Positions 245 through 27,339 of a stretch of 64,000 bases of DNA are shown here, in pieces. Origin of the DNA: Patescibacteria group bacterium (lineage in GTDB: Bacteria; Patescibacteriota; Patescibacteriia; JAHJFT01); assembly GCA_028710985.1 (NCBI GenBank), contig JAQTTB010000001.1, positions 295,397-359,396 on the forward strand, given 5' to 3'. The notes beneath the pieces were generated by a model. That model was not told the origin of the DNA, made no database searches, and was given only the letters and a program-made list of their open reading frames with translations. Positions within the stretch are counted from its first letter, which is position 1, and each line of letters opens with the position of its first letter. Position numbers and translations under genes: made by a program.

Positions 245-283
245 TACAAAAGGACGGGCCGAGACCTGTCCTTTTGTGATATA

Positions 284-2239: not shown

Positions 2240-2316
2240 TGACAATAATGAGCGCGTCAAACTTAACCGAGATAAAAAATATCCGCCGCGCGGATACAAC
2301 AACTTTTAATTTTACA

Positions 2317-2340: not shown

Positions 2341-2353
2341 GAATTTTTAATTG

Positions 2354-2940: not shown

Positions 2941-2944
2941 ATGA

Positions 2945-6181: not shown

Positions 6182-6269
6182 AAATTAAAAAGCAGGCGCG
6201 ATTGAATAAAGCACCTGTTTTTTTATAAATCCTTTCCCTATCGAAAAAACGTTTTTGTTAGTACCTGGG

Positions 6270-6372
6270 GTTCGGGGTGGCTGCTAAGCGCCGTTTAGAA
6301 ATGCAAAGAGTCGCCTAATGAAATTGAGAGCGCACCTGCCTGCCGGCAGGCAGGTCAGCCACCCCGAAACTT
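6270..6372. repeat. composite palindromic element: 13 bp stem (TTCGGGGTGGCTG / CAGCCACCCCGAA) enclosing REP-like palindrome CCTGCCTGCCGGCAGGCAGG
   Basis: The two 13-mers are perfect reverse complements at 6270-6282 and 6360-6372. The F1 palindrome lies in the enclosed loop. A second hairpin (ACTTTTGG..CAAAAGT) follows at 6375-6400. Confidence 0.45.
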
Positions 6373-6477
6373 TTGCATACTTTTGGTTACAAAAGTAGGT
6401 CCTGCTGAAAGCAAACAACGGAGTATCTAGAAAAATTATCGTCACCCAGGCATGCGCCCCGCGATCGCTAGAAAACA

Positions 6478-6512
6478 AAAAACCGGAATTTTTCAACGCC
6501 GGTTTTTTTGTT
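6478..6512. terminator. intrinsic terminator hairpin AAAAAACCGGAATTTTTCAACGCCGGTTTTTTTG (bidirectional), 3' of PBP1A gene
   Basis: The CCGG..CCGG stem has A-run and T-run flanks. It sits 5 nt beyond the stop of the minus-strand PBP gene. Confidence 0.55.
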
Positions 6513-6516
6513 GCGC

Positions 6517-9363: not shown

Positions 9364-9700
9364 CTGCCTACGCTCTCGCTGCGCCTGCCTGCCGGCAGGC
9401 AGGCTTGAGCTTCGGCAAGGCGGGCGGTGACACGTCGCTCGCGAGCGACGTGTCGGTGGGAATCGTCCCGATGTTCCGCTGCGCGGAAATCGGGACGATT
9501 CGCGAAACTTAGATCATCATAGATAATCAGGCCACGGCGAGAATTGCACTCGCGCATAGGAGTTTTGCAGACTCCCGCCTTACTGCTTGGCTACGTGGCC
9601 TGATTATCTACGATGTACTTTTAGCTTTTAAAGAAAAGTTTTAGTTTTGCAGATTTACCCGCCGTAGCCCCGATAGCAATCGGGACGAAGGAGGATGGCC
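9361..9700. repeat. palindrome-dense intergenic block (several nested/adjacent inverted repeats) in the divergent PBP1A/polA promoter region
   Basis: Five elements in 340 bp: (1) CCTGCCTGCCGGCAGGCAGG at 9385-9404; (2) 26 nt perfect palindrome GACACGTCGCTCGCGAGCGACGTGTC about 9430-9455; (3) ATCGTCCCGAT..TTCCGCTGCGCGGAA..ATCGGGACGAT about 9458-9497; (4) 17 bp inverted repeat TAGATAATCAGGCCACG / CGTGGCCTGATTATCTA at 9518-9534 and 9596-9612, enclosing two small hairpins; (5) CCCCGATAGCAATCGGGACG about 9672-9691. Confidence 0.6.
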
Positions 9701-9898
9701 ATTCGTTAAAATTTGCTTGTATTGTAGCAAAATTACGCCATGTTTTCAAGAAAATATTCAGTCCGGCACTTTATCGGCTTGGGCATAGCTAAATTATCCG
9801 CCAAACTGTTGATTAAATGGGGAAAAAACATCTAAATTTAGCCAAAAATGCATTTGGCAAAACTTTGAAAATCAGGTAGAATATACATAAATATCTCC

Positions 9899-12565
9899 AT
9901 GAAAGAGCAAAAAAAGAAAACCCTGCTTATTTTGGACGGCAATGCCCTGTTGCATCGCGCCTGGCACGCCTTGCCGCCCCTAACCGACCCCAAGGGCCGG
10001 ATCGTTAACGCGGTTTACGGTTTTATTTCCGTGCTCTTGAAGATGATTAAGGAACAGGCGCCCGAATACATGGCCGTGACTTTCGATAAAGCCGGCCCGA
10101 CTTTCCGGCATGAAGAATTTAAAGAATATAAAGCCACCCGCGTTAAACAGCCGGACGAGCTTTACGCGCAAATCCCCATGGTCAAGGATATTTTGCGTGT
10201 TTTTAATATTCCGGTATTTGAAGCCGCGGGTTATGAAGCCGACGACGTCATCGGTACGCTTTCCCGCATTCTTGATCCGCGTATGGACGTTGATTCAGTC
10301 ATTGTCACCGGCGACATGGATACTCTTCAGCTCGTTGACCGGAACACCCGGGTTCTGGCTTTCGTGAAGGGTTTGAGCCAGGCCACCCTCTATGGCGAGT
10401 CTGAGGTGCGCGAGCGCTACGGCCTCCCGCCCGATCATCTCATTGATTACAAAGCAATTGCCGGCGACGCGTCCGACAATATTCCCGGCGTGCCGGGCAT
10501 TGGTCCAAAGGGCGCCGGTGATTTGATTCGCGAATTTGACAGTCTGGAGAATGTGTATCACGAGGTTAAAGTCCATCCGGAAAAGTTTAAAAAAGGCACT
10601 TTGGAAAAATTACAAAAAGGTGAAAAAATGGCCAAATTAAGTCAAAAACTGTCCAAGATTATTATTGACGTGCCCATTAAGTTCGCGTTGGAAAAATGCG
10701 AGCTTGGCAAGTGGAACCGCGACGAAATGGTTGCCGCGCTTGGTGAATTTGGATTCAAGTCACTTATTGCGAAATTGCCCGGCGCGGAATCGGAAAATAA
10801 GGGAACGATGGAACAAGGGAACAATAGAACAAGCGGGCGGGTAGGCTCTATCCGGGAGATGGAAAAAGCATTGGCCGGAATTGCCAGAGAAAAACAAATC
10901 GCCGTGGCTGCGGAGATTGGGGCGGCCGGGCTTTTCGGTGCGAGCCTTGCCGGTCTGGCGGTTTATTTTCCGGAATCGGGCGCGCAGTTTTTTGATCTTG
11001 CAAGATTATCAAAAACCGATTTAAAAAAATTCGTCGATCTCGCGGCGCCGGTTCTTGAAAATGAAAATATAAAAAAAATCGGCCATGACCTGAAGCGCGA
11101 AGCCGCATTGCTCGCAGGGCAGGGCATCCGCTTGGCTGGTTTTGATTTTGATGTCATGATTGCCGCCTATCTCCTGTCATCCGGCACGCGGAGTTATGAC
11201 CTTGAGTCCGTCATACTGCAGGAATTCGGCGAGGAGATGAAAATCGGAACCGCGGACTCGGCGGCAAATAAGATAAAGCGCATCTGGGATCTTCGGGACG
11301 CGCTTGAGCCGCGTCTTAGCGAGGCCGGCATGGCCAAATTGTTTCAGGAGATCGAAATGCCGCTCGTGCCCGTCCTTGCCGCCATGGAGCAGATCGGCGT
11401 GAAGATTGATTCCGGTTTTTTAAATAAAATGGCAGTAAAAGTAGATGAGAGCATTGAAAAGCTCAGCAAGAAAATTTATAAAATGGCCGGCGGTGAATTC
11501 AATATCAATTCTCCGACCCAGCTCAAGGAAGTGCTTTTCGAAAAACTTGCCATTTCCCCGGCCGGCATCCGCCGCGGCAAGACCGGGCTTTCCACCGCCG
11601 CGCCGGAACTTGAAAAAATGCGTGGTCAGCATGAGATTATTGATTTGATTTTTGAGCACCGCGAACTCGCTAAGCTCAAAAGCACCTATATTGACGCCCT
11701 GCCCCGGCTGGTTGATAACGCGTCCGGCCGCGTACATACGAGTTTCAATCAGACCGTAACTTCAACCGGCCGGCTCTCCTCTTCAAACCCCAACCTGCAA
11801 AACATTCCCATCCGCTCCGAACTTGGCCGTGAAATCCGCAAGGCTTTTATCGCCGAGCCGAAGAATCTTTTGGTTGCGGCCGATTACTCGCAGATTGAAC
11901 TTCGCATTGTTTCCGCCTTGGCCGGCGATGAGCGCATGATCCAGGCGTTCCGCGAGAAACGCGACATTCATACCGCCACGGCGGCGGCCATCTGGGGCGT
12001 TCCGGAAGACAAAGTTGATAAAGATATGCGCCGATCCGCGAAAGCCATAAATTTCGGCATCATTTACGGCCAGGGGCCGCGCGGTCTCGCGCAGTCGGCG
12101 GGCATAAGTTACGCCCAAGCCGAAGAATTTATTCGCAAATATTTTGAGGTTTACTCCGGCGTGGCCGAGTACATGGAGCGTACCCGCGCTCTGGCGCGGG
12201 AGTTTGGTTATGTTGAAACAATTTTTGGCCGGCGGCGTTATCTTCCGGAAATTAATTCCCACGTGGCCCAGCTTCAGGCCGCGGCCGAACGCATGGCCAT
12301 CAACATGCCGGTGCAAGGCGCGGCCGCGGATATCATGAAAATCGCCATGATTAAGATCCACGCCGGCTTGTCCAAGATTTCCCCGAAGTCAAAAATGATT
12401 CTGCAGGTGCATGACGAACTGGTGTTTGAGGTGCCGGAGACTGAGGCGAAAAAAGTTGCGGCTTTCGCGCAGGAAGAAATGGAGAGCGCGGCCAAACTCG
12501 CGGTGCCCATCGTCGTTGAAGTCGAGTCCGGTAAAAATTGGGGGAGCATGGATAAGATTATATAG
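9899..12565 (+). CDS. polA: DNA polymerase I
   Basis: 888 aa. N-terminal 5'-3' exonuclease/FEN domain (LLILDGNALLHRAWHA...GDASDNIPGVPGIGPK). Central 3'-5' exo-like region. C-terminal polymerase motif A (AADYSQIELRI), motif B (RRSAKAINFGIIYGQ) and motif C (LQVHDELVFEV). Confidence 0.95.
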   Translation: MKEQKKKTLLILDGNALLHRAWHALPPLTDPKGRIVNAVYGFISVLLKMIKEQAPEYMAVTFDKAGPTFRHEEFKEYKATRVKQPDELYAQIPMVKDILRVFNIPVFEAAGYEADDVIGTLSRILDPRMDVDSVIVTGDMDTLQLVDRNTRVLAFVKGLSQATLYGESEVRERYGLPPDHLIDYKAIAGDASDNIPGVPGIGPKGAGDLIREFDSLENVYHEVKVHPEKFKKGTLEKLQKGEKMAKLSQKLSKIIIDVPIKFALEKCELGKWNRDEMVAALGEFGFKSLIAKLPGAESENKGTMEQGNNRTSGRVGSIREMEKALAGIAREKQIAVAAEIGAAGLFGASLAGLAVYFPESGAQFFDLARLSKTDLKKFVDLAAPVLENENIKKIGHDLKREAALLAGQGIRLAGFDFDVMIAAYLLSSGTRSYDLESVILQEFGEEMKIGTADSAANKIKRIWDLRDALEPRLSEAGMAKLFQEIEMPLVPVLAAMEQIGVKIDSGFLNKMAVKVDESIEKLSKKIYKMAGGEFNINSPTQLKEVLFEKLAISPAGIRRGKTGLSTAAPELEKMRGQHEIIDLIFEHRELAKLKSTYIDALPRLVDNASGRVHTSFNQTVTSTGRLSSSNPNLQNIPIRSELGREIRKAFIAEPKNLLVAADYSQIELRIVSALAGDERMIQAFREKRDIHTATAAAIWGVPEDKVDKDMRRSAKAINFGIIYGQGPRGLAQSAGISYAQAEEFIRKYFEVYSGVAEYMERTRALAREFGYVETIFGRRRYLPEINSHVAQLQAAAERMAINMPVQGAAADIMKIAMIKIHAGLSKISPKSKMILQVHDELVFEVPETEAKKVAAFAQEEMESAAKLAVPIVVEVESGKNWGSMDKII

Positions 12566-12586
12566 AATATTTCTTTTGTAATATTT

Positions 12587-14668
12587 ATGAAAGATACAAT
12601 CAACGCTAGCGTGACAAGAAGCAGGGTCTCCATATTCTGTACCCACGCGATTGAAATGCTGTGGTTATTTTTGCTCGTGGCCCTGCCGCTGTTTTATTAC
12701 CGTTCACATCAGTCGTTTAACATGCCAAAAATCCAGCTCATGTGCATTACGGTCGCGTTCATGATTGCCATCTGGATTATAAAAAGTATTGAGGGGCGCC
12801 GTTTTACTGTACGCGGCGGAGCCATGCTCTGGCTCATGACCGCTTATTTCGGCGTCATGGCCTTGTCCACGATTTTTAGTTTCTACCCTGCGGCCAGCTG
12901 GTGGGGCACTTACATCCGTTTTGAAGGCATGATTACCTATCTGTTTTATTTTTCCGCTTTTTATTTAATTTTCTGGCATCTCCGGACTTTGACGCAGGCC
13001 TATCGGTTTTTTATGGTGGCAGCGCTCGCCTCTTTGCCGGTTTCGATTTATGGCTTTTTTCAATACTATGGCTATGACTTTTTGAAATTTACAGAGGACG
13101 CGTCCGGTTTTTCGGAAATCATTTCTACTCTGGGAAATTCGCTTTATCTCTCCGATTATCTGATCATGGTACTGCCGCTCGCCTTTGCCCTGGCACTGAT
13201 CGCGAAACGCTGGTATTGCCGCGCCGCTTGGCTCGCGCTTGTATTTACGGATATATATGCCCTGGTGCTCACCGGTAAGCGTTCGGGCTTTGTTGCTCTC
13301 GTCGTCATGGCGGCAATCGGCGGATTCCTTTTGCTCTGGCGTTGGCGCCGGTCAATTGCCATCGCCGTTGGCGCGGTTGGGCTTGCCGCGGTTCTGATGC
13401 TCGCTTTCAATTTCAACACCCTATCGCAATCAGGCCTGGTCCAGAATACACCCTATCTGCGGAGAGTCGCGAGCATTTTTAATTTTGAAGACATTACAAT
13501 CAAAGAGCGTTTAGCGGTTTGGCAGCTTGCGGTCGGTTTTATTATGGATCGCCCGATCATCGGCCACGGCGTGGAAACTTTTGGTTATGTATTTAATGCC
13601 CAATATCCGCCGTCTTTTACCGCAATGCCGGAAACGATTTTTGACCGCGCCCACAATTTATTTCTGGATACCGCATTTAATGTTGGGCTGGTCGGCTTCG
13701 TTATATATCTTGCCATCTTTGGCTTGGCCATATTTCAGAGCTTGAAGATTTTTTTCAGAGAGAAAAATCAATGGTTCTCATATCTCAGCTGGGGAATCTG
13801 CGTGGCGCTCATAGGTTTTGTGGCTCACAACCAGTTTATGTTTGAAAACGCGGCAACGCGATACTTCCTTTTTTCATATTTTGCCGTGGCTGCGGCGATT
13901 CCGCTTGCGATCCAACGTGAACGTAAAATTGCTGCCGTGCCAGCTGAGCCGATCAGGCCGACGGAAAAAATTAAATTCTGGGCATCCCCGGAATACAAAA
14001 TTATTTATTACGCCATACTGATTGCGGCCCTGGCTTATTCGGTAAAATTTCACATCTTTCCAATTTCCGGAGACTTTTTCTATAATAGGGCGTTGAGTTT
14101 CGGCAGTCTGGCGGATAAAAATATGCGGGAAGTTGAATTAGAAAAAGCCATGTACTATATTCCGGATTACCGGTCCGCTGTTTATTATCAGAGAATGGGC
14201 GCTGACTGTTTTATTTATGCACAGAATATAAAAGACGAAACACGCGATGTCAGTTTTGAAAAAAGCATTAACTGGTACAATGAGGCCGCGGAAAAAGATC
14301 CCTGGCGCTACCAAATTTTTCAGGAAGAAGCGCAGGTTTTCATGATTTGGAGCAAATTTACCACCGATGAGGCCGTGGCTCAGGAGAGGCGGGATCAGGC
14401 AAACATACTATTTGAAAAATCGGTCTCTCTAAGTCCCGGTCGTCAATCAATATATTGGGACTGGGGCCGCGCTTTAATCAACATCAAACTTTGGGATAAA
14501 GGCATTATTAAATATCAGCACGCGATCGATATGGATCCTTTGATCGGCCGGTCGTATTTTGAACTGGGCAAGGCATACCGCGATACGAGCGAGCCGGAAA
14601 AAGCGCGGGAAGCGTTCGATAAAGCAATTGAGCTTGGTTACACCGGCGATGAGAGCGATCCACTCTAA
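12587..14668 (+). CDS. O-antigen ligase/Wzy_C-like polytopic membrane protein with C-terminal TPR repeats
   Basis: 693 aa. About 12 hydrophobic helices. A large loop reads ...LVLTGKRSGFVALVVMAAIGG..., consistent with Wzy_C-type proteins. The C-terminal about 200 aa is TPR-like (YYQRMGADCF...FELGKAYRDTSEPEKAREAFDKAIELGY). A paralog lies at 48870-51377. Confidence 0.55.
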   Translation: MKDTINASVTRSRVSIFCTHAIEMLWLFLLVALPLFYYRSHQSFNMPKIQLMCITVAFMIAIWIIKSIEGRRFTVRGGAMLWLMTAYFGVMALSTIFSFYPAASWWGTYIRFEGMITYLFYFSAFYLIFWHLRTLTQAYRFFMVAALASLPVSIYGFFQYYGYDFLKFTEDASGFSEIISTLGNSLYLSDYLIMVLPLAFALALIAKRWYCRAAWLALVFTDIYALVLTGKRSGFVALVVMAAIGGFLLLWRWRRSIAIAVGAVGLAAVLMLAFNFNTLSQSGLVQNTPYLRRVASIFNFEDITIKERLAVWQLAVGFIMDRPIIGHGVETFGYVFNAQYPPSFTAMPETIFDRAHNLFLDTAFNVGLVGFVIYLAIFGLAIFQSLKIFFREKNQWFSYLSWGICVALIGFVAHNQFMFENAATRYFLFSYFAVAAAIPLAIQRERKIAAVPAEPIRPTEKIKFWASPEYKIIYYAILIAALAYSVKFHIFPISGDFFYNRALSFGSLADKNMREVELEKAMYYIPDYRSAVYYQRMGADCFIYAQNIKDETRDVSFEKSINWYNEAAEKDPWRYQIFQEEAQVFMIWSKFTTDEAVAQERRDQANILFEKSVSLSPGRQSIYWDWGRALINIKLWDKGIIKYQHAIDMDPLIGRSYFELGKAYRDTSEPEKAREAFDKAIELGYTGDESDPL

Positions 14669-14670
14669 AC

Positions 14671-14760
14671 GAGAATCTAGTAGCTAGAATCTAGAATCTA
14701 GCCGTTTAAAGCAGGTTTACCCCTCAATAAAAGACTAGATTCTAGATTCTAGATTCTAAG
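14671..14760. repeat. empty hairpin of the TCTAGA-type low-complexity inverted-repeat family (left arm GAGAATCTAGTAGCTAGAATCTAGAATCTAG, 27 nt spacer, right arm AAAAGACTAGATTCTAGATTCTAGATTCTAAG)
   Basis: The arms are reverse complements. It fills the whole gap between the waaL-like stop (14668) and the holA start (14763). The same arm family flanks the four-helix-bundle gene at 23998-24342 and recurs at 27095-27290. Confidence 0.65.
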
Positions 14761-14762
14761 TT

Positions 14763-15704
14763 ATGATAATACTAATTCACGGTCAAGACACCTTCCGCTC
14801 ACGGCAGAAACTACGCGAGCTTATTTTGAGTTTTAAGCAAAAATTTGATACCAATGGTTTGAATTTGATTTCTTTTAAAGAGAGTTCTACCACCGACGAA
14901 CTTTTTCAGGCCGCGGCCACGGCCCCATTTCTCGCGCCCAAAAAAATGGTCATTGCCGAGAATATAAGCCAGCGGGTAAAGGACTGGGACGTCATCGCTC
15001 CGCTCTGGAAGCGTGTTCCGGATGAGACTATTCTCGTGCTTTGGGAAGAGGCGGAAGAGAAAAGTCTGAGCAAGGCCTTTGCGGGCTTGCCGAAGAAAGA
15101 TGTATTTTTTTATGAATATTCCCCACTCTCGCCGGCCGAAACGCGGCGCTGGCTCGTGGACCGCTGCCGCGAAAAAAAGATTTCCATCCGGCCGGCCGTG
15201 CTTGACCTCCTGACCGAAAAAGTCGGATTTGATCTTTGGCGGCTGGATTCCGAACTTGATAAGCTTTCGGCGCGCGCCGCAGGCAAGGAAATCACAAAAC
15301 AGCACATTGACGAGTTGGTTGACACGCGGCTTGAAGATAATATATTTCTTTTTTGCGACGCGTTGGCGCAGAAAAACACCAAGTTGGCGCTGGATTTGCT
15401 TGAGCGATTAATGCGCTCCGGGGTCAATGAGTTTGAACTCTTGGGTAAGCTCATTTGGCAGTTTAGGATATTACTCAAGATGCGTTCATATTTTGATGAT
15501 GATCCGTCGGCCAATTCGGCTCGCGCGGCTAAAGATTTGGGGCTTCACCCGTTCGTGGCGAATAAAAATAGCGCGATTGTCAAAAATTTTAAATCCGCCG
15601 AACTTACTGCTCTGTATAGAAAAGCTCTGGAATTGGAGATCAGCCTCAAGACTGGCCGCGTTGAACCGACTCTCGGGCTGGAGATGCTCGTGGCGGCGAT
15701 ATAG
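14763..15704 (+). CDS. holA: DNA polymerase III delta subunit
   Basis: 313 aa. N-terminus MIILIHGQDTFRSRQKL matches the HolA pattern (IYLLYGEE.F). Overall alpha/beta N-domain, and the length fits. Confidence 0.7.
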   Translation: MIILIHGQDTFRSRQKLRELILSFKQKFDTNGLNLISFKESSTTDELFQAAATAPFLAPKKMVIAENISQRVKDWDVIAPLWKRVPDETILVLWEEAEEKSLSKAFAGLPKKDVFFYEYSPLSPAETRRWLVDRCREKKISIRPAVLDLLTEKVGFDLWRLDSELDKLSARAAGKEITKQHIDELVDTRLEDNIFLFCDALAQKNTKLALDLLERLMRSGVNEFELLGKLIWQFRILLKMRSYFDDDPSANSARAAKDLGLHPFVANKNSAIVKNFKSAELTALYRKALELEISLKTGRVEPTLGLEMLVAAI

Positions 15705-16145
15705 CAATAGAACATCAGAGCAAAAGAACAATGGAACAAAAATATGGCGGATAAGAATGCCTACAGAGAAACTTTAAAGCAAAAGATGGACGAATATGTC
15801 CATCTTGTTTATAAAGTCACTAGAAATTTTCCGGCTGAAGAAAGATTCGGTTCAGCGTCGCAGTTGCGTCGGTCGGCTTTATCGGTAATTTTGAACTATA
15901 TTGAGGGATTCGCTCGCATAAGATTAAATGTAAAATTAAATTTTCTTGAAATCGCTTATGGCTCACTCAAAGAATCAAAATATTTGATATATTTCTCAAT
16001 GAAGGAAGGGTATATATTCAAAGAAGATTACCAGACCCTAATCGGACTTGCCGACAATATCGGGGCCATGCTCTGGTCTGAAATAGCGCAAGGCAGTAAA
16101 AAGCGAGACAAAAATTGACTTGTTCTTTGTTCTGTTGTTCTATTG
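15705..16145 (+). mobile_element. IVS-like cassette A: four-helix-bundle protein gene enclosed by imperfect low-complexity inverted repeats (left CAATAGAACATCAGAGCAAAAGAACAATGGAACAA, right CTTGTTCTTTGTTCTGTTGTTCTATTG)
   Basis: Arms at 15705-15739 and 16119-16145 are reverse-complementary (ttgttc/gaacaa motifs). They abut the start and stop codons of the enclosed ORF. Confidence 0.6.
15744..16118 (+). CDS. four-helix-bundle protein (23S rRNA intervening-sequence protein family, TIGR02436-like)
   Basis: 124 aa. Family hallmarks: ...LVYKVTRNFPAEERFGSASQLRRSALSVILNYIEGFAR...IAYGSLKESKYLIYFSMKEGYI. Three paralogs elsewhere in the window share the SQ(L/M)RR(A/S)AxSIxxNIAEG core. Confidence 0.85.
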   Translation: MADKNAYRETLKQKMDEYVHLVYKVTRNFPAEERFGSASQLRRSALSVILNYIEGFARIRLNVKLNFLEIAYGSLKESKYLIYFSMKEGYIFKEDYQTLIGLADNIGAMLWSEIAQGSKKRDKN

Positions 16146-16210
16146 TTGAAATACCGCAAGAAAACAAAAACCAGCCTAGATTATCTTGGGCCGGTTTTTT
16201 AAATATACTC

Positions 16211-16483
16211 TTACTTGGCTGCGAATTTCCGATTGTACGCCTTGGTGAGCCGCGAAACATTGCGCCGGCTAGTGTTAGCCGGAATGGCATGAGACTTGGC
16301 GGCCTTGGCAGACCTCGTCTGTAATTGTAAGAGAAGTTTTTTTGCATCATCCTTTTTGTCGGAGGCAATCGCCTTAAGGAGATGCTTTTTAATTGTATCC
16401 AATTCACCGGTCAAGGCGGCATTTTTCGCGGTTCGGACCTTGCTTTTCCGGAGCTCCTTGGCCGCGGATTTTTTGATTGGCAT
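16211..16483 (-). CDS. rpsT: 30S ribosomal protein S20
   Basis: 90 aa basic protein (MPIKKSAAKELRKSKVRTAKNAALTGELDTIKKHL...), the S20 signature. Confidence 0.9.
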   Translation of the reverse strand: MPIKKSAAKELRKSKVRTAKNAALTGELDTIKKHLLKAIASDKKDDAKKLLLQLQTRSAKAAKSHAIPANTSRRNVSRLTKAYNRKFAAK

Positions 16484-16521
16484 AAATAAAATTTGATAAA
16501 AATAAATTGATTAATCGTATC

Positions 16522-17562
16522 TTACGATAAATCCGCCGGCTTGTCAAGTTGCTTGGGTTCAACCAAGTCCTCGCTGCCGGTTAGTTTATTCATGTCCTTG
16601 TTAATTTTGGCAAATTCCTTGTAGGCAGAATTATAAGTATTCACCACAGTGCCAAATTGATCGCCAAGTTTAATTAAATAATTATCAAAATTTAGATAGT
16701 GCTTGTTAAGTTTTTGCAGACCGGCGATAACCTCTTTAATATTTTCTTCAACCTTCAAAGCCTTTAAAGCCTGCAAAATCGTCTGCAGATAAGCGATAAA
16801 CGTGGTCGGTGAAACAATGACAACCTTTTTGCTGTTGGCATATTCAATCAGGTTCTGGGAACTGACGTCAACCGCGCCGACGGTCGCAATGAGCAAACTG
16901 TAATATACGCCTTCGGCCGGAATAAACATGAGTGCGAAATCAGTGGTGTTTTCATTTGGCCGGATGTATTTGCTTGTTTCGTCAATGCGTAGTTTTAAGT
17001 CTTGTTTAAATTCGCGTTCAAGCAAATTTCGGCGCACTTTGTCATTTTCTTCCTGGATTAGATTATATTTTTCCAGAGAAAATTTTGCGTCAATGGGGAT
17101 GATTTTGTCGCGGACAAATATTGCGGCATCAACAATTTCGCCGTTTTTGAAAGCGTACTGCATGGTGAAGTGATTGGGGGGCAAAACGTTGGATAAAACC
17201 GATTCAAGAAAGTATTCCCCCAAAATACCACGATGTTTGGGGTTTTTTAGAATATTTTCCAGGCTCTGCAATTGTGATGCAAAATTAACCACCTGTTTGT
17301 TTGTGGCATCAAGTTGTTCAAGTCGGGCAGTAACAGACTGGATTAAGCGGCTGGAGTCGCCGGATTGCTTTTGCAAAAAATCCAGGTTCTTCTCAAGTGA
17401 AGATTTAAGTTCGCTTTGGATTTCCTTGACCTGGGTTTGCAGATCTTTAAGCCCACGGTCCTGATTCGTGTCAGTATTGCGTTTTGAAAAAACAAAATAA
17501 GCCAGCAAAATGATCAAGGCAATAAGCAGTAATAGTAAAAACATTGATAGATAGTTTTGCAT
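16522..17562 (-). CDS. rmuC: DNA recombination protein RmuC
   Basis: N-terminal TM helix, then a long coiled coil (LQTQVKEIQSELKSSLEKNLDFLQKQS...), then the conserved RmuC C-terminal domain (VDAAIFVRDKIIPIDAKFSLEKY...FALMFIPAEGVYY). The start is taken at MQNYLSMFLLLL (17562) rather than the longer ORF start at 17604. Confidence 0.7.
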   Translation of the reverse strand: MQNYLSMFLLLLLIALIILLAYFVFSKRNTDTNQDRGLKDLQTQVKEIQSELKSSLEKNLDFLQKQSGDSSRLIQSVTARLEQLDATNKQVVNFASQLQSLENILKNPKHRGILGEYFLESVLSNVLPPNHFTMQYAFKNGEIVDAAIFVRDKIIPIDAKFSLEKYNLIQEENDKVRRNLLEREFKQDLKLRIDETSKYIRPNENTTDFALMFIPAEGVYYSLLIATVGAVDVSSQNLIEYANSKKVVIVSPTTFIAYLQTILQALKALKVEENIKEVIAGLQKLNKHYLNFDNYLIKLGDQFGTVVNTYNSAYKEFAKINKDMNKLTGSEDLVEPKQLDKPADLS

Positions 17563-18114
17563 ATAACAGTATTTTAGCACGATAAAGCAAGGCAGGCAAG
17601 TCACAAATGACCATATTTTGCGAATCTTATTTTAAAGTAAAATTACACAATATATTAGTATTCATATCCTCGCTTGTCGTGAAACTAGTTGATTTATCGC
17701 AGATTATGCGCGTCAGAGCCGGTTTGACTAAATATGCTACGAAATTCCGTTAAACTGTATCACAATTTGATGCAGTTCGTTGTATTTATAGAGGAAATAT
17801 CGCTTATCTGCTCAGCCGATGAGTAAAAGGAGGTGAGAGTGGAGGCTATCGCAAGGAAGACGAAGTTGAGGAGCTGCGTGGAATTTAAAACAATTGATTG
17901 AAAAATCGCGAGTACATTGGCCGGTCGTGTCCGTCTCTTCAACTCGTGGAGTGGGTGCAAAGAGGAAAAAATAGTTCCTTGAAAATGGTCAAAAAACCGT
18001 CTATGGGATCGTTAACAGGGCTAACGAAGAAAAAGTTCCACATGAAACTATTTTAAAGATAAACATACTAGATGTCTAAGTAAGACTAGACAAAGACTTT
18101 TTAACCCATAAATC

Positions 18115-18194
18115 TGTGGATAAGTTGTCTGAAAAATCAAAAAATAGCTTAAAATCAGGTGATTTAAAAACAATGAACAATTTATTTATCCACA
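18115..18194. promoter_or_regulatory. two perfect consensus DnaA boxes in inverted orientation (TGTGGATAA 18115-18123; TTATCCACA 18186-18194) in a 670 bp AT-rich non-coding region
   Basis: Each is an exact 9-mer match to the canonical DnaA box. The surrounding sequence is strongly AT-rich with A/T tracts. They lie 70-150 bp upstream of the promoter at 18233-18261. Confidence 0.6.
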
Positions 18195-18232
18195 GATAGC
18201 TATTTTTTAGCTAATTTTAGCGAAATTTAGAA

Positions 18233-18261
18233 TTGAAAATAGCCCTAATTCATGCTATAAT
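18233..18261 (+). promoter_or_regulatory. sigma70-type promoter TTGAAA-17-TGcTATAAT driving the surface-protein gene cluster
   Basis: -35 TTGAAA at 18233-18238. 17 nt spacer. Extended -10 TGCTATAAT at 18253-18261. Start codon at 18284. Confidence 0.5.
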
Positions 18262-18283
18262 ATAGAGTGAAAATCTAACAAAC

Positions 18284-19207
18284 ATGACTAAAGAAGAAAA
18301 AATTTTTGGTTTCTTGATTGTTTTTTGTATTACCCTGTTATTCACCGGGTGTATTCAGGCTATGTCCTCCACAAACTACATCATCAACTGGGATTCCTTA
18401 AACATTGGCGGCACGGACTTCAGTTCTTCAACCAACTACTTCATGAGTGACACCCTTGGCGAGATGTCAACCGGCCGCAGTTCAAGTACCAACTACTGGA
18501 TTTACGCCGGTTATCGTCAAGGCGTTACGGACATCCGATTTATCAGCTTTGACATTGGCGCCCAGGCAAACGCTTCGAAAATTGATTATTCGGCTTTCAG
18601 CAATGCGGGTAAGCAAGTGACGGTTTCGAGTGCGGTTGGCTATTCGGTGGGGGATTATATCGTGGCCGTGGAAAATGCCGGAGCAAGCCAGATGATTGCC
18701 ATCGGTAAAATTTCCAGCATTCTGGGAAACAGCCTCACGGTTGATAAGTGGGACGGCGATAATGCGGCCATGAGCGCGGTTCCAGCAGGAGGCAACGATT
18801 GGGTGTATGAATTATCCGGGAATACCGTAGATCTCGGGACACTGCTCACTGCCACGGTGGGTGTCGGCGTGAGCTTCAACGAAGTTAGTACCAACGCGGA
18901 CAATGGGTACACGGTTTCGGTAAAAGATGACGGAAATTTGCGGGACGGATTAAAAGACATTGACGACGTGATTGACGGCGCAGTCACGGCCGGCATTGAA
19001 GAATATGGCATTGAAACAGTTGGGACAAACGCGTCCGGCACCAATGATTTCGCTTTAGAATCTGCATTGGGCCAGTCGATACAAGTATCGACCGCTCCCT
19101 GGAACAGAGACCGCATCGGTGTAATTTATAAAGCCGGAATAAATTATGCGACGCAGGGCGGATCATATTCACACATTGTTTCGTATTATGTGACAGCAAA
19201 TTTTTAG
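18284..19207 (+). CDS. secreted/lipoprotein-like protein of unknown function (paralog 1; C-terminal motif SYSHIVSYYVTANF)
   Basis: 307 aa. N-terminal signal with a lipobox-like LFTGC. Repeated S(S)TNY motifs. Gly/Thr/Ser-rich beta-type composition. Shares its C-terminal motif with the next gene. Confidence 0.5.
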   Translation: MTKEEKIFGFLIVFCITLLFTGCIQAMSSTNYIINWDSLNIGGTDFSSSTNYFMSDTLGEMSTGRSSSTNYWIYAGYRQGVTDIRFISFDIGAQANASKIDYSAFSNAGKQVTVSSAVGYSVGDYIVAVENAGASQMIAIGKISSILGNSLTVDKWDGDNAAMSAVPAGGNDWVYELSGNTVDLGTLLTATVGVGVSFNEVSTNADNGYTVSVKDDGNLRDGLKDIDDVIDGAVTAGIEEYGIETVGTNASGTNDFALESALGQSIQVSTAPWNRDRIGVIYKAGINYATQGGSYSHIVSYYVTANF

Positions 19208-19485: not shown

Positions 19486-20532
19486 ATGAACAACTTAATT
19501 AAATTCCTGGTGTTCGTCATGGTATTCACCATGAGTCTTGGATTGTTTACGCCGGTTTACGCGGCCAATGTGGCGTTAAATCTCGGCGTGGATAGCAAGG
19601 TTGATATCTTTGACAGCACATACCCTATTGAAAACCAGTCGTCTGCCGAATTAGCGCTTTCAACGGCCGCGGATCTTTATTTTCAGTACGTAGCGGCAGG
19701 CAACTTTGCAGTAGGTCAGACGATTAGCATCGTGGCAACTACGCCATTGGTTATCGCGTCTTGCGTCGCACCAACAACCGATGCTGACCAGGACGGAACT
19801 CCGGATGGCACCGGTGCAGTTTCCGGAGACAACTATACCTACACCTTCTATGCCCCCACTACTCAAGCCGCCGCTTCAATCACCCTGTGCATCAATGTCG
19901 ATAACAGTATCGCAACTGCTGGCAATTATTCGTTCATCATGGCTGACGACCTCGGTGATTTCGGCGGAGCATTCCTGTACATCGGTACACCTGGGGGAGC
20001 GGCCAACGATGTTTATGTAACCGCGACAGTTACGAGCCAGGAACTTGAGTTCTGGATCCGGAATGCGGCGGATACAGCGGACACCAACGCTTGCGCTCTG
20101 GGAACGCTTAATACCACGTCGGTATCAACGTGCAACTATGCACTAAAGGTTCGCACCACGGCCACAATTGGATATACCATTTCCTGGACCTCGGACGGCG
20201 AACTTGACCGAAGTGGTACTGCGACCATTGATGCAATCGCCATGAACACGGCGGTTGCGGTCGGTGTTGAAGGTTATGGCGTAACGTTCACCCCGGGCGC
20301 TAACACCGACGGCGGTACTTGTACGGCGCAAAATATCTGGACAGCTGCCTACGATGACCCGGTTTCCACCACGGCGCAGAGTCTGGTGGTCTGCAACAAG
20401 GCCAACTTGCCAGCCGCAACCGGCGCAACGACATATATTCACAACATGGATCACCAGGCGGCAATTGATCCGGCTACTCCAGCGGGTAGTTATGATCAGA
20501 TTGTTACCTATTACGTGACCGCGCAATTCTAG
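19486..20532 (+). CDS. secreted protein of unknown function (paralog 2; C-terminal motif SYDQIVTYYVTAQF)
   Basis: 348 aa. Signal peptide MNNLIKFLVFVMVFTMSLGLFTPVYA. RBS GGAAGGAG 8 nt upstream. Thr/Ala/Gly-rich. The C-terminal 14 residues are nearly identical to the previous protein. Confidence 0.5.
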   Translation: MNNLIKFLVFVMVFTMSLGLFTPVYAANVALNLGVDSKVDIFDSTYPIENQSSAELALSTAADLYFQYVAAGNFAVGQTISIVATTPLVIASCVAPTTDADQDGTPDGTGAVSGDNYTYTFYAPTTQAAASITLCINVDNSIATAGNYSFIMADDLGDFGGAFLYIGTPGGAANDVYVTATVTSQELEFWIRNAADTADTNACALGTLNTTSVSTCNYALKVRTTATIGYTISWTSDGELDRSGTATIDAIAMNTAVAVGVEGYGVTFTPGANTDGGTCTAQNIWTAAYDDPVSTTAQSLVVCNKANLPAATGATTYIHNMDHQAAIDPATPAGSYDQIVTYYVTAQF

Positions 20533-20612: not shown

Positions 20613-21569
20613 ATGAAGAAAATGTTTATTATGGGGTGTATTGCCTTGCTCATGGCCATGACTCTCGCGTCCGGGGCGCAGGCAATCGGCATCTTGCCGT
20701 TCATTGTGGAGGATGTGAACATCGCACCCGGCGAAATGGCCACTCGGACTTTCACTGTATACAACAATACCGAGAGCGAGCAGACGTATTATTTCGTGAC
20801 GCGAAATTTTACCACCCGGGGTGAGGAGGGAGAGGTCGTGATTACCGAAGAAAAATTCGGTCTTGCCACTTGGATTGAGTTTCCCTTCACTTCGATAACC
20901 ATTCCATCCAGCGAAAACCGGGAGATTGAATTTACCATCATAATTCCGCCGAATGCCGACGCCGGTGGCCATTTCGCCGCAGTGTTTGCTTCCACCAATC
21001 CGCCGGATGTGGAACAAGGAGTTGGCCTCTCTGCCAATGTCGGTACTCTGGTGTTCGTGCGCGTGTCCGGCGACATCATTGATGACGTGCGTTTGTTGAG
21101 TTTCCATACCAAGGGGGACCAGGCGCTGTTTAGTCACCTGCCGGTTAATTTTGAATACCGCATAGAAAATCGCGGAACGGTTCATGCCAAGCCAACCGGA
21201 AGAATTATGATGAGCGGCTGGTTGGGTAAAACCGACATTGACGCCAATCCCAAGGAAAATCGCATTCTGCCGTCATCCATCCGTCGCATTGAAGCGACCT
21301 GGGTAAAAGATTCAGGAGCAATCCGATCCGGAGGCTTTCTGACTGAACTCAAAAACGAATGGAACAATTTCGCCATTGGAAAATATACAGCCGCGCTAGA
21401 TTTGTCTTATGGCGTCGAAGGAAAAAATTTGACTACCGAGACGGCTTTCTGGGTATTTCCATGGCATGTTTGCTTAGCGGCTTTGCTAATTCTGATCGGG
21501 ACAATTGTTGCCATCATTCTCTATAACAAGATGGTTATCGCAACCGCCCGCAAAAGCGGCAAACTCTAG
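20613..21569 (+). CDS. cell-surface protein with signal peptide, beta-sandwich domains and C-terminal TM anchor (DUF916/DUF3324-like architecture)
   Basis: 318 aa. Signal peptide ...ASGAQA. Central beta-rich domains (TFTVYNNTESEQTYYFVTRNF...GGHFAAVFAST...). C-terminal hydrophobic helix FWVFPWHVCLAALLILIGTIVAIILY followed by a basic tail NKMVIATARKSGKL. Confidence 0.45.
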   Translation: MKKMFIMGCIALLMAMTLASGAQAIGILPFIVEDVNIAPGEMATRTFTVYNNTESEQTYYFVTRNFTTRGEEGEVVITEEKFGLATWIEFPFTSITIPSSENREIEFTIIIPPNADAGGHFAAVFASTNPPDVEQGVGLSANVGTLVFVRVSGDIIDDVRLLSFHTKGDQALFSHLPVNFEYRIENRGTVHAKPTGRIMMSGWLGKTDIDANPKENRILPSSIRRIEATWVKDSGAIRSGGFLTELKNEWNNFAIGKYTAALDLSYGVEGKNLTTETAFWVFPWHVCLAALLILIGTIVAIILYNKMVIATARKSGKL

Positions 21570-21582
21570 TTTGACATCGAGT

Positions 21583-23898
21583 ATGGGAAAATGCATTTAT
21601 AAAATAATTTTCATCGCGGTTTTGGTAGGAACCATTCTAGCAAACTCTTTTACATTTGCTGCGGATATGACGCACGTCTCGGTGTCCTTGTCTGCCCAGA
21701 TGATTGGCGAAGCGGCCAATACCACGATTCGTTTTCGTACGCCAACCGGCGTGGACAGTTCAACCGATACGATTGTCATTGCCTGGCCGGCGGAATTTAA
21801 TGTCGCGGGTATTGTTCTTACGGATATGGATTTATCACATGGCGCGGTCTCGGGCTATGAAACCGATCTTACCCTGGCGGCCGTTGCCGGCGCCGGCATC
21901 TGGGGCGCTTCGTGGGTCGGGCATACTCTGACCTTGGCTGCGCCGACCGACGCTGCGGCCGGCGAAATCGGAGTCAACGATTACGTGGTGCTCGAGGTCG
22001 GTACGCACGCATCATTCGGCGGTGCCGGTGCCAACCAGGTGGTGAATGCGGCGACTGCCGGAAGTTATAATTACACCATTAGCGGCACGTTTGGCGATAC
22101 TAAAAATCCGGCTGTCTACGTTGCGGATAACAACACGGTTGCCATCACCGGCACTGTGCTTGGCGATATTGAAACAATTTGCGACAACGGACTTGACGAT
22201 GACGGTGACACATTAATTGACTGCTATGATCCGGACTGCGCCGGCAATTCTTATTGCGTGCCGCCCGGCGGCGGCGGTGATACCACCCCGCCGGCTATCA
22301 CCAATGTAAACTGCATGGATATTACCCCAACCTCGTTTTCCGTGGTCTGGGAAACCAACGAAGCCGCAACCTCCTGCTCCGAATACGGGGAAACTTCGTT
22401 TTACGAACTCGGCATGCTCTGCAATATGTCGCTCGTCTGGTCGCATTCCGTGCCGTTTGTTGGTTTGGCCCAGCTTACGAATTACCATTTCCGTGTGATT
22501 TCCCGCGACGAATATTTCAACACCTCAATTAGCGATGATTATTCCTGCGCCACTTTGGGCGACACCGAAGCGCCGGTTATCAGCAATATCCGCGTGATAA
22601 ATATCACGGCCACGAGCGCGGAAGTTGTTTGGGACACCAATGAGCCAGCCACGTCGCAGGTTGATTACGGTCTGACCGATGTCTATGGTACGGAAACACC
22701 GACAGATTTCGCCTATGTTACCGAGCATCACGTTATTCTCACGGGTTTGACCCCGAACACGGATTATCATTTTCTGGTTCGCAGTTATGATATCGCGGGG
22801 AATGGCGCGGTTTCCGGTGACAATATTTTTCACACGCTCACGAGCGTGGATTCGCCGATTATTACCGATGTGCAGATTGTTGACATCACGGAAACTTCGG
22901 CACGGGTTATTTGGCAGACCAACGAGATTGCCGATTCCGAAGTTGATTACGGCACGACCCTAAGCTACGAGGTCGGCACCGTGGTTGACGGCGCGTTTGT
23001 GGTTGATCATTCAATTGACCTGAACAACCTTTTACCGAACACGCTTTATCATATCCGCGTACACAGCACCGATCCGGAATCCAATGAATCGGTTACTGGC
23101 GACTACACCTTTACCACTCTGCCGGATACCACCCCGCCGGCTAATGTGACAGACTTCACGGCAACAGTAACCGGACCGCTGGAGATTACTCTGACCTGGA
23201 TCAATCCGACCGACGCGGACTTCGCCGGCGTGCGCATTTGCCGCAGTACGGTCGCGTACCCGACCGATCCGTTGACCTGCGATATTATTTTTGAAGGCGC
23301 GGGCACGAGTTTTATTGACACCGACGTGGAGGCAGGCGTGACGTACTATTACACCAACTTTGCTTTTGACACATCCAATAATTTCGCTTCCGGCGCAATC
23401 GCTTCGGCCCGGGTTCCGTTGCCGGTTACTGTGACTTTTCTTGGGCATCCGGAAAAGCGCTGGCCGCGGACCGGCAACTGGAGCACGACTATTGAAATGG
23501 AGCTTCGCGAACCCGGTTCCCTGGCCTCGCTTGAAACAATTTTATTTGACACCAATTCGCTTGGCTATGGCACCTCTACCATGAATCTGTTGGAATACGG
23601 AGAAGCGTACGACTTTACGGCAAAGGGTTTTTCTCACCTGCGGAAAAAAATGAGTTCCGCGACCATCACCGAAACCAGCACTATGCTGGACTTCACTTTT
23701 GGAAACATCTTTAACCTCTATGCCGGTGACTGCCATCCGTCAAAAGACAATTTTGTAAATTCGTTAGACATTTCCACTTTAATTAATGACCTAATGGCTT
23801 CGGAACGGGTTAGCGATCTGAATAATGATAGCCAGGTGAATTCGCTTGATATTACTATTCAGATGGCCAATCTTATGAAGGACCTGGGGGATGATTAG
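21583..23898 (+). CDS. secreted protein with four FN3-like repeats and C-terminal tandem dockerin
   Basis: Start chosen at MGKCIYKIIF (signal peptide); the longer ORF start overlaps the upstream gene. Four repeats of the pattern TTPPAITNV.C.DITPTSFSVVWETNEAATS..EYG / ISNIRVINITATSAEVVWDTNEPATSQVDYG / ITDVQIVDITETSARVIWQTNEIADSEVDYG / NVTDFTATVTGPLEITLTWINPTD. The C-terminus has two dockerin calcium-binding segments (SKDNFVNSLDISTLINDL and DLNNDSQVNSLDITIQMANLM; D1-N3-D5-N9-D12 spacing). Confidence 0.6.
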   Translation: MGKCIYKIIFIAVLVGTILANSFTFAADMTHVSVSLSAQMIGEAANTTIRFRTPTGVDSSTDTIVIAWPAEFNVAGIVLTDMDLSHGAVSGYETDLTLAAVAGAGIWGASWVGHTLTLAAPTDAAAGEIGVNDYVVLEVGTHASFGGAGANQVVNAATAGSYNYTISGTFGDTKNPAVYVADNNTVAITGTVLGDIETICDNGLDDDGDTLIDCYDPDCAGNSYCVPPGGGGDTTPPAITNVNCMDITPTSFSVVWETNEAATSCSEYGETSFYELGMLCNMSLVWSHSVPFVGLAQLTNYHFRVISRDEYFNTSISDDYSCATLGDTEAPVISNIRVINITATSAEVVWDTNEPATSQVDYGLTDVYGTETPTDFAYVTEHHVILTGLTPNTDYHFLVRSYDIAGNGAVSGDNIFHTLTSVDSPIITDVQIVDITETSARVIWQTNEIADSEVDYGTTLSYEVGTVVDGAFVVDHSIDLNNLLPNTLYHIRVHSTDPESNESVTGDYTFTTLPDTTPPANVTDFTATVTGPLEITLTWINPTDADFAGVRICRSTVAYPTDPLTCDIIFEGAGTSFIDTDVEAGVTYYYTNFAFDTSNNFASGAIASARVPLPVTVTFLGHPEKRWPRTGNWSTTIEMELREPGSLASLETILFDTNSLGYGTSTMNLLEYGEAYDFTAKGFSHLRKKMSSATITETSTMLDFTFGNIFNLYAGDCHPSKDNFVNSLDISTLINDLMASERVSDLNNDSQVNSLDITIQMANLMKDLGDD

Positions 23899-23940: not shown

Positions 23941-24368
23941 AAGAATCTAGTATCTAGTATCTAGAATCTAGAAGATCAAAAACGAAAATACTTATATATG
24001 CAGACGAAATCATTTAGAGATTTGATTGTTTGGCAGAAGTCGCGCGATTTGGGGGTTGAGATATACAAGTTGACAAAGAGTATGCCCAAAGAGGAACTCT
24101 ACGGCATGGTGAGTCAGATGAGAAGGGCGGCGATCTCCATATCGTCCAATATCGCCGAAGGATATAATCGCGCGCATCCGATAGAGAAGAGGCAGTTTAT
24201 GCGCATCGCCTATGGTTCAGGATCGGAATTAGAAAGCCAGATCGAAGTCGCAAAGATTATATATCCAAAGTTAAGTTATAAGTTATCAGAAAGTTTATTA
24301 CTCGAAGTACTAAAGATCCTAAATAAATTTATCAACCGATAAAAGACTAGATTCTAGATTCTAGATTC
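23941..24368 (+). mobile_element. IVS-like cassette B: four-helix-bundle gene enclosed by TCTAGA-type inverted repeats (left AAGAATCTAGTATCTAGTATCTAGAATCTAGAAG, right AAAAGACTAGATTCTAGATTCTAGATTC)
   Basis: Arms at 23941-23974 and 24341-24368 are reverse-complementary. The right arm starts at the stop codon. Same arm family as 14671-14760 and 27095-27290. Confidence 0.65.
23998..24342 (+). CDS. four-helix-bundle protein (23S rRNA intervening-sequence protein family)
   Basis: 114 aa. MQTKSFRDLIVWQKSRDLGVEIYKLTKSMPKEELYGMVSQMRRAAISISSNIAEGYNR...IAYGSGSELESQIEVAK: the canonical family sequence pattern. Confidence 0.85.
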   Translation: MQTKSFRDLIVWQKSRDLGVEIYKLTKSMPKEELYGMVSQMRRAAISISSNIAEGYNRAHPIEKRQFMRIAYGSGSELESQIEVAKIIYPKLSYKLSESLLLEVLKILNKFINR

Positions 24369-27112: not shown

Positions 27113-27290
27113 AATCTAGTATCTAGAATCTAGGCGTTAAAAGTTTATCAATCTATAAAAAGACTAGATTCTAGATTCTAGCTTCTAGATTCTCCGTAAA
27201 GACTAGATTCTAGATTCTAGCTCCTAGATTCTCCGAAAAGACTAGATTCTAGCTTCTAGATTCTAGATTCTATCTTTTCCGCTCTCGGAC
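27095..27290. repeat. TCTAGA-type inverted-repeat locus: one left arm (overlapping the last codons of the upstream gene) and three tandem right arms (AAAGACTAGATTCTAGATTCTAG(C/T)T(C/T)CTAGATTCTCC)
   Basis: The left arm AGAATCTAGAATCTAGTATCTAGAATCTAGG starts inside codons NENRI-stop. The spacer CGTTAAAAGTTTATCAATCTAT resembles the spacer at 14702-14728. Three near-identical right-arm copies lie at about 27158-27195, 27199-27236 and 27240-27285. Confidence 0.65.
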
Positions 27291-27339
27291 TGAAGTCAGT
27301 GCTCTTGCGCAAAATGAGCCCTAACCTGAGTCCGAAAGT

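Follow-up and report, generated by a model that had tools for sequence, protein, structure and literature searches.

Conserved DnaA boxes upstream of a pilus-like operon close to the candidate replication origin of a Patescibacteria group bacterium

The 64,000-bp stretch of Patescibacteria group bacterium contig JAQTTB010000001.1 analyzed here on both strands (hereafter the window) contains an AT-rich intergenic gap flanked by two divergently transcribed genes: rmuC on the minus strand, and on the plus strand the first gene (18284-19207) of a pilus-like operon, coding for a secreted protein of 307 aa that contains an N-terminal signal sequence as well as STNY repeats. Within this gap lie two perfect DnaA boxes. 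Box 1 (18115-18123) is on the minus strand, reading TGTGGATAA on the plus strand and perfect TTATCCACA on its complement, and box 2 (18186-18194) is a perfect TTATCCACA on the plus strand. The original prediction, made from the sequence of the window, had singled out these two exact 9-mers in opposite orientation with 62 bp between them, and we recovered both at precisely these positions. The AT-richness that it noticed was equally evident (35% GC, versus ~49% for the window), while the gap length, given there as 670 bp, had to be revised to 680-740 bp, depending on whether rmuC starts at 17604 (longest open reading frame, ORF) or at 17544 (as called on the source contig). No other perfect DnaA 9-mer exists in the 64,000 bp of either strand. 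Mononucleotide shuffling of the window (n=3000) yielded a mean of 0.495 perfect boxes per shuffled sequence, and two perfect boxes at most 100 bp apart occurred in a single one of the 3000 shuffles. Both boxes are embedded in a perfect 12-bp inverted repeat, the left arm of which (ATCTGTGGATAA, 18112-18123) contains box 1 and the right arm (TTATCCACAGAT, 18186-18197) box 2. The box pair is real and non-random.

The original prediction had also placed a near-consensus sigma-70 promoter immediately downstream of the boxes. This promoter is indeed present at 18233-18261 on the plus strand, with a −35 element TTGAAA (18233-18238), a 17-bp spacer, and an extended −10 element TGcTATAAT (18253-18261). 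Matching 11 of 12 consensus positions in addition to the extended −10, it is the top-scoring sigma-70-like site between 16 and 20 kb. Relative to the transcription start predicted at ~18268, box 1 is centered at ~−149 and box 2 at ~−78, with the latter beginning at position −98 relative to the ATG. The palindrome GCTAATTTTAGC (GCTAA-N2-TTAGC, 18210-18221) follows box 2 ahead of the −35 element, and two further motifs precede box 1. One is the 21-bp block GTCTAAGTAAGACTAGACAAA (18074-18094), which holds a GTCTA...TAGAC inverted repeat and occurs once in the window (0 expected by chance); the other is a degenerate parS-like palindrome, AGTTCCACATGAAACT (18034-18049), with 3 mismatches to TGTTNCACGTGAAACA and loss of the central CG. 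Three other kinds of element were sought in the gap and set aside. A divergent minus-strand promoter at 18078-18050 was discarded on account of a −10 element that is not conserved in relatives. ORFs of 20-66 aa occur there, but relatives show no alignable sequence over the distal 430 bp, and a conserved small peptide was discarded as well. As for structured RNAs, Rfam covariance models gave no match in 17400-18400 at E-values up to 1, and at gathering thresholds a search of the whole window retrieved no RNA family in the gap and two tRNAs only in the entire stretch.

Conservation of these motifs was assessed in the upstream regions of relatives, gathered from 40 genome loci, 7 loci obtained by exact-protein look-up, and a metagenome pattern scan (cited below by L numbers). 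A protein search identified the 307-aa protein as PHW53_01580, a protein of a Patescibacteria metagenome-assembled genome, and retrieved more than 200 homologues in Patescibacteria, while the gene order polA, holA, [tRNAs/rpsT/rmuC], gap, 307-aa gene and followers is conserved in ~35 loci. In the subclade of the window, where the 307-aa protein is 54-62% identical, the gap can be aligned only over its promoter-proximal ~270 bp, as short blocks with diverged spacers between them. Nine relatives share the block order: parS-like palindrome, 21-bp block, reverse box(es), forward box, GCTAA-N2-TTAGC, −35, and −10, the last two being kept as TTGAAAA and TGCTATAAT. The 21-bp block persists in all subclade relatives and is presumably a protein-binding site, whereas the parS-like slot is conserved as GTTyCAyAyGAAAC (also given as GTTTCAyAyGAAAC). 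Scanning metagenomes for the 21-bp block returned 21 stretches; the layout is common to L046/L050, L047, L052, and L061 only, and the remaining ones look like chance matches.

At the orthologous gene of nine related genomes, the cores of the boxes do not vary, whereas the spacers have diverged beyond alignment. Consensus boxes next to a promoter are conserved at the orthologous promoters of these nine relatives. A perfect box in the orientation of box 1 was found in 6 of 10 aligned relatives, and 10 sequences show little or no variation in the TCCACA core of box 2. In L042, L043, and L044, the forward box keeps a constant position between −96 and −99 relative to the ATG. The two boxes of the pair are 50-51 bp apart in five relatives; in the window the distance is 71 bp, the difference of 21 bp corresponding to two helical turns. 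An additional weak box is found 22 bp farther out in three relatives. In every subclade locus, this pair constitutes the only perfect boxes, and the dnaA loci of the four relatives lack any. The window and all loci together (518 kb) contain 34 perfect boxes versus ~4 expected, nearly all of them at two intergenic places, one preceding the first gene and the other preceding the giant gene that ends the cluster (27340-43770 in the window, 5476 aa). They often read TTATCCACAG with a weaker nnnnnCACA box 11 bp upstream. By our own reading of the sequences, the few boxes inside the 307-aa gene occur there because of conserved VDK codons.

The 12-bp inverted repeat raises the possibility that ATCTGTGGATAA and TTATCCACAGAT are the operator of another factor, or the ends of a mobile element, with a coincidental match to the DnaA consensus. 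The repeat runs 3 bp past the 9-mer, a G follows the 9-mer in about two thirds of the relatives' boxes, and further conserved operator-like blocks nearby suggest that other factors bind the region. However, relatives keep the 9-mer and not the 12-mer, with different flanks (e.g. TTATCCACATAT and TTATCCACACCA), and the spacing of the arms varies between 50 and 71 bp. Besides, the weaker variants in the region are classic DnaA-box variants (TTGTCCACA, TTATACACA, and TTATCAACA), often arranged in tandem with 11-bp spacing. We hence regard an operator of a different factor as improbable. A mobile element is unlikely because the sequences flanking the repeat are not duplicated (CCATAA versus AGCTAT) and no other copies exist in the window. 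A miniature inverted-repeat transposable element or insertion sequence (IS) remnant was accordingly rejected: a 12-bp inverted repeat is present, but it comes with neither target-site duplication nor further copies, and its arms behave as separate sites with variable spacing.

The palindrome next to box 2 offered an independent view of the boxes. Allowing one mismatch, GCTAANNTTAGC occurs 6 times in the window versus 1.6 expected, a count reached in none of 100 shuffles, and four of the six matches fall in intergenic promoter regions, namely those of dnaA (3320-3331), polA (9831-9842), the 307-aa gene (18210-18221), and 54834 (54834-54845). The last copy lies before the gene at 55058 or a divergent methyltransferase gene. 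The dnaA promoter region (3284-3361, plus strand) reproduces the whole arrangement: three boxes, CTGTCCACA (3284-3292), TTATCAACA (3295-3303), and TTATTAACT (3306-3314), are followed by the palindrome GCTTATTTTAGC (3320-3331) and by an extended −10 element TGtGATAAT (3353-3361). This order of boxes, palindrome, and extended −10 (TGTGATAAT) is kept in four relatives. A weaker module precedes polA, where a weak box, TGTTGATTA, is followed by the palindrome. Across all loci, the palindrome lies within 80 bp of 12 of 45 perfect boxes versus 0.5 expected, including the giant-gene sites of L010 and L036. GCTAA-N2-TTAGC is probably the operator of a global regulator and, at the pilus-like promoter, a second conserved operator predicted to receive a putative dimeric factor. 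Furthermore, domain IV of the DnaA encoded in the window carries the canonical GGRDHTTAMHA motif. Because of this motif, the co-occurrence with the palindrome, and the module at dnaA, we read the two boxes as putative DnaA operators that share the control logic of the dnaA promoter.

Collectively, these data lead us to favor, with moderate confidence, a reading in which DnaA bound at the two boxes would feed into the control of the pilus-like operon promoter, titration being a by-product. DnaA would contact the boxes centered at ~−78 and ~−149 through its domain IV with the canonical GGRDHTT motif, a putative dimeric factor would occupy GCTAA-N2-TTAGC (centered at ~−52), and both proteins would jointly set the activity of the TTGAAA-17-TGcTATAAT promoter. 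Since the same module of boxes, palindrome, and promoter also precedes dnaA, transcription of the pilus-like operon would be wired to the DnaA signal that governs dnaA autoregulation. The boxes lie upstream of the core promoter and not over it, and this anatomy does not reveal the sign of regulation; taking the dnaA autoregulation of model bacteria as an analogy, we lean to repression at high DnaA. Because they are origin-proximal (13 kb to the right of the proposed oriC), the sites would be duplicated right after initiation and might then act as a small DnaA sink, as the oriC-proximal clusters of Bacillus subtilis do. The phylogenetic footprint and the module common to the dnaA promoter thus support a regulatory or titration role at the level of sequence, with DnaA occupancy, its effect on transcription, and titration all inferred. 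The original prediction had offered a DnaA-titration site or a DnaA-regulated promoter as one of its options; the coupling to the promoter is backed by the footprint and the dnaA-promoter module, whereas as a titration cluster the window has just two boxes. If DnaA control holds, the conserved box pair and the companion operator of the dnaA promoter would provide a testable link between the replication initiator and the host-attachment machinery. CPR (candidate phyla radiation)/Patescibacteria are tiny, mostly episymbiotic cells, and we know of no experimental work on how they coordinate replication with the surface structures that reach the host.

Several observations weigh against DnaA control of the operon. 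The transcription start at ~18268, to which the distances refer, is a prediction. Another protein may recognize TTATCCACAG. In several distant relatives, the box near the giant gene is placed between the preceding stop codon and a terminator-like hairpin, where a promoter would not obviously be expected. The orthologous promoter of many distant relatives has parS arrays but lacks a DnaA box; DnaA control is therefore not universal for this operon. Finally, two boxes make a small sink when set against the multi-box datA and DnaA-box cluster (DBC) loci: the DBCs of B. subtilis are multi-box clusters, and datA of Escherichia coli combines a cluster of DnaA boxes with an IHF site and promotes both DnaA-ATP hydrolysis and titration. 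The window is similar to datA in having high-affinity boxes outside oriC together with a second protein-binding site. It differs in that boxes are more numerous in datA, where the IHF site is defined, whereas the window gives no sign of IHF or of ATP-hydrolysis activity.

Other precedents come closer. Cases of DnaA acting as a transcription factor, such as dnaA autoregulation and gidAB-parAB of Pseudomonas aeruginosa (PMC13438810), share with the window consensus boxes upstream of a sigma-70-type promoter. The differences are a new target, an uncharacterized phylum, the accompanying GCTAA-N2-TTAGC palindrome, and a control that is predicted here. B. subtilis possesses six DBCs outside oriC, some of which regulate neighboring genes and which collectively restrain initiation, acting synergistically with Spo0J/parS (PMC3245932). 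Like these DBCs (Okumura et al. 2012, PMC3245932), whose origin-proximal region also harbors parS sites, the sites in the window are intergenic, near but outside oriC, and beside a promoter. Unlike them, the window has two boxes, both perfect, and a pilus-like operon as neighbor, and in its relatives boxes are interspersed among densely arrayed parS sites, or joined to parS within a 45-bp unit, an arrangement for which we found no description in the literature searched. The window locus adds a new target, in an uncharacterized phylum, to a known class, that of origin-proximal DnaA-box sites and DnaA-regulated promoters.

The parS-like slot of the gap leads to the main alternative. In the window, no parS lies within 3 mismatches of TGTTTCACGTGAAACA anywhere in the 64 kb. 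The site at 18034-18049 deviates from this sequence at 4 positions, and from the 16-bp palindrome TGTTNCACGTGAAACA at 3, including the central G; AGTTCCACATGAAACT thereby lacks the intact central CG of a parS. Along with GTTTCATATGAAAC, it is a variant of the exact parS of relatives, and the metagenomic relative L052 carries an exact parS core in the conserved slot. More distantly, 22 of 34 orthologous loci have 2-11 exact parS cores (GTTTCACGTGAAAC) in the gap, within 0.3-1.4 kb, up to the 11 sites in ~700 bp of L022. Examples among L003-L036 are L022:4840-5550, L012:4556-5856, and L024:4794-5436; many array sites show extra flanking symmetry, with palindromes of up to 22 bp. By sequence, such arrays upstream of the pilus-like operon look like a compact chromosomal centromere array. 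Two orthologous gaps qualify as titration-locus clusters by their number of DnaA boxes. In L036, a GTTTCATGTGAAAC variant is surrounded instead by five perfect boxes within 300 bp, with imperfect ones in addition, and L035 has 6 perfect boxes, with five copies of the 45-bp composite unit TTATCCACAGAAATAAGCTATTGTTTCACGTGAAACAATAGCTTA in L035:340-1370. This unit consists of a perfect DnaA box, 13 bp, and a 30-bp parS-centered palindrome. The L035 copies are separated by unrelated spacers of 140-270 bp and adjoin tRNA-Arg and tRNA-Ala genes, the unit alone being conserved. Because of the relatives' arrays and composites and the degenerate palindrome of the window, we view the gap as a place where DnaA boxes and parS sites appear to have been repeatedly kept together. 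Literature searches for parS or DnaA boxes in CPR/Patescibacteria returned nothing relevant.

The boxes might then serve mainly replication control or chromosome organization, as the reduced remnant of an origin-proximal organizing center inherited from the parS/DnaA-box locus of relatives. The two boxes would be a sink for DnaA of the datA or DBC type, or an anchoring point, and their proximity to the pilus promoter would be incidental. The parS arrays of the 22 loci, the five boxes of L036 and the composite units of L035, the degenerate parS kept in the conserved slot of the window, and the 13-kb distance to the origin module all fit such a role, as does the situation in B. subtilis, where DBCs and parS are both origin-proximal and genetically synergistic (PMC3245932). 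On the other hand, only two boxes are left in the window, together with a parS-like site that is 4 mismatches away from TGTTTCACGTGAAACA. Moreover, the fixed distance of box 2 to both promoter and palindrome argues for a promoter-coupled function, and the same box-plus-palindrome module stands at the promoters of dnaA and polA. We consider a primary role in replication or segregation unlikely, albeit the most serious of the alternatives. Nonetheless, replication and promoter roles are not mutually exclusive. More speculatively, and with slightly less conviction still, the gap could be envisaged as a combined chromosome-maintenance and gene-control locus, at which DnaA and ParB (or a ParB-derived factor on GTTTCAyAyGAAAC) would couple replication and segregation to a host-attachment pilus. 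The window would then represent the DnaA-dominated end of a spectrum that has the 11-site parS array at its other end. If confirmed, parS arrays and DnaA-box/parS composites would make an unusual chromosomal centromere architecture.

A further motif recurs in these gaps, (T)ATTTTACGAC(G/A)C, with the variant ATATTTTGCGAA at 17616-17624 in the window. Copies were noticed at L042:4934, L043:111, and L067:5357, several in L035, and many in L006-L036, ~50-110 bp upstream of the 307-aa homologue. It often follows a parS site by 10-13 bp, and in the window subclade it adjoins the rmuC start.

A pair of perfect boxes within AT-rich DNA that separates divergent genes could also signal the true oriC apart from dnaA, which the original prediction had raised as one option, or a second origin. 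In support of this, the sequence after box 2 (GATAG followed by CTA TTT TTT) fits the most lenient pattern of an origin-unwinding site (box, 0-16 bp, (NAN)x3), and the boxes at dnaA match the E. coli consensus less well. However, the 739-bp gap has no further DnaA-box-like site at up to 2 mismatches, and neither a conserved DnaA-trio run within it nor triplet conservation in the T-run after box 2 was found in relatives. Raw GC skew, calculated from the 64 kb alone, amounts to −0.126 (1-5000), ~0 (5001-9500), and +0.052 (9501-17600), then to +0.122 across the gap and +0.016 over 18.3-27.1 kb. It is thus positive on both sides of 18 kb and changes sign at ~5-9 kb and not at 18 kb; cumulatively, it reaches its minimum at 8054, within the gene of a penicillin-binding protein (PBP) on the minus strand. 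Similarly, 17 of 18 loci have the same skew sign on both sides of the orthologous gap, and there is no switch in L044 either. GC skew at third codon positions was dismissed as an origin marker because the coding-strand effect dominates it (plus-strand genes negative, minus-strand genes positive), and raw skew was used instead. Local swings of the skew stem from the composition of the 5476-aa ORF (27340-43770). Because neither a skew switch nor extra boxes nor a conserved trio run was found there, the gap is not supported as oriC, and we deem an origin at this place highly improbable. A skew minimum elsewhere and a lack of additional boxes are the outcomes that the original prediction itself had named as speaking against an origin here.

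A far better candidate, which the original prediction had named as its alternative, resides in the spacer between dnaA (3427-4803) and dnaN (5045-6181), both confirmed by Pfam. There, a conserved module on the plus strand (4974-5044) comprises the abutting boxes TTTTGCACC and CTGTCCACC (4974-4991), GCC (4992-4994), the DnaA-trio-like CTACTACTATTACTA (4995-5009), and AT-rich sequence to 5044, so that the spacer ends as TTTTGCACC|CTGTCCACC|GCC|CTA CTA CTA TTA CTA|TATATAAATATATAAAATAACTAATAACAATAATT. It contains the only run of at least four ([CT]TA) units in 64 kb, which adjoins the most AT-rich 40-mer of the window (37/40). Its boxes are TCCAC-core variants with 3-4 mismatches to TTATCCACA, weaker than those at the pilus promoter. 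When compared with the dnaA loci of four relatives (L070-L073, DnaA 73-82% identical), all five genomes have two abutting TCCAC-core boxes, GC(A)C, CTA YTA CTA YTA CTA, and an AT-rich tail, while the rest of the spacer diverges. L070 resembles the window also in its cumulative skew minimum, 3.5 kb to the right of its dnaA-dnaN spacer. The origin module is therefore placed at 4974-5044 as the probable site of unwinding. We take its layout to resemble closely that of B. subtilis incC and of the B. subtilis basal unwinding system (BUS). In a BUS, one or more DnaA boxes are followed by a short GC-containing spacer, by three or more trios whose central A is on the complementary strand, and by AT-rich DNA (PMC8287927). 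The spacer shares this layout (Pelliciari et al. 2021, PMC8287927), with five CTA/TTA trios, whereas the 18.1-kb region shows no conserved form of it. It departs from the BUS search rules in that its boxes carry 3-4 mismatches, versus a published limit of 2 for the better box (PMC8287927). A generic BUS scan (box at up to 3 mismatches plus (NTN)x6) yielded nothing but noise from coding regions, without recovering this five-trio module, and it was replaced by a search for ([CT]TA)xN. With the strongest boxes lying away from the origin, counting consensus boxes would misplace oriC in this genome.

To the left of the gap lie rnpA(−), rpmH(−), dnaA, dnaN, a class A PBP gene (−), tRNA-Cys(−), polA, and a Wzy/TPR protein gene, and, nearer to the gap, holA, the gene of a 23S rRNA intervening-sequence protein, rpsT(−), and rmuC(−). 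To the right, the 307-aa gene is followed by genes at 19486-20532, 20613-21569, 21505-23898, and 24374-27112, with fn3/dockerin and CarboxypepD_reg proteins among the products, and by the 5476-aa ORF as last gene of the cluster. This ORF has internally repeated segments, and its relatives measure 4166-4619 aa. Pfam gave no match for the first two operon genes, and NCBIfam matched their products to PamT and Pam_pilin_C with E-values of ~1e-10 to 3e-11, scores that fall short of the curated cut-offs. For the 307-aa protein, an AlphaFold2 model (predicted local distance difference test score, pLDDT, 82.7; residues 22-81 disordered) had no match in the Protein Data Bank at E ≤0.001 with Foldseek; there were weak matches only, many of them to chaperone-usher pilins such as CfaB, FimA, FimG, and Csu. 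Residues 22-81 hold three S(S)STNY repeats and, judging from the model, might be donor-strand or linker segments.

Pam, a pilus specific to CPR bacteria and built by donor-strand exchange, was reported in 2026, mainly from Saccharimonadia and Microgenomatia (bioRxiv 10.64898/2026.03.03.709456). The proteins of the window are similar to it in their Sec signals, Ig-like beta folds, multi-gene operon, and sub-threshold PamT and Pam_pilin_C matches. By contrast, the genes of the window include those of fn3/dockerin and CarboxypepD_reg proteins and the 5476-aa ORF, the scores stay below cut-offs, the neighborhood is polA-holA-rmuC and not ATP synthase, and loci of this type are annotated as Uhrbacteria or Patescibacteria group. 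We find the label of pilus-like surface operon reasonable, on a distant similarity to Pam that does not establish membership in that family. The surface-protein operon of the original prediction was a fair description, given that the gene at 18284 encodes a secreted, distantly pilin-like protein.

Further inside the cluster, 11 loci carry a perfect DnaA box at, or within ~10 bp of, the stop codon of the homologue of the CarboxypepD_reg (912-aa) gene (L006:11629, L029:11147, L033:11097, L036:11377, L012:12510, L015:12564, L016:12566, L020:12656/12678, L010:12410, L032:11314, and L034:11182/11242). These boxes lie 150-300 bp upstream of the giant gene wherever its start is within the locus (L006, L029, L032, L033, and L036), and a terminator-like hairpin or a GCTAA..TTAGC palindrome sometimes follows them. 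The corresponding spacer of the window (27113-27339) has no such DnaA box. Two genes of the 23S rRNA-intervening-sequence type (bAvd-like, four-helix) occur amid syntenic genes at 15744-16118 and 23998-24342, the latter in the middle of the pilus-like operon, and the presence of both varies between relatives. At 51568-52362, a tRNA-Ala(GGC) gene is followed by a 195-aa ORF with a weak match to an IS200-like Y1 transposase (E 2e-4, below the cut-off), and this segment may be a degraded mobile element.

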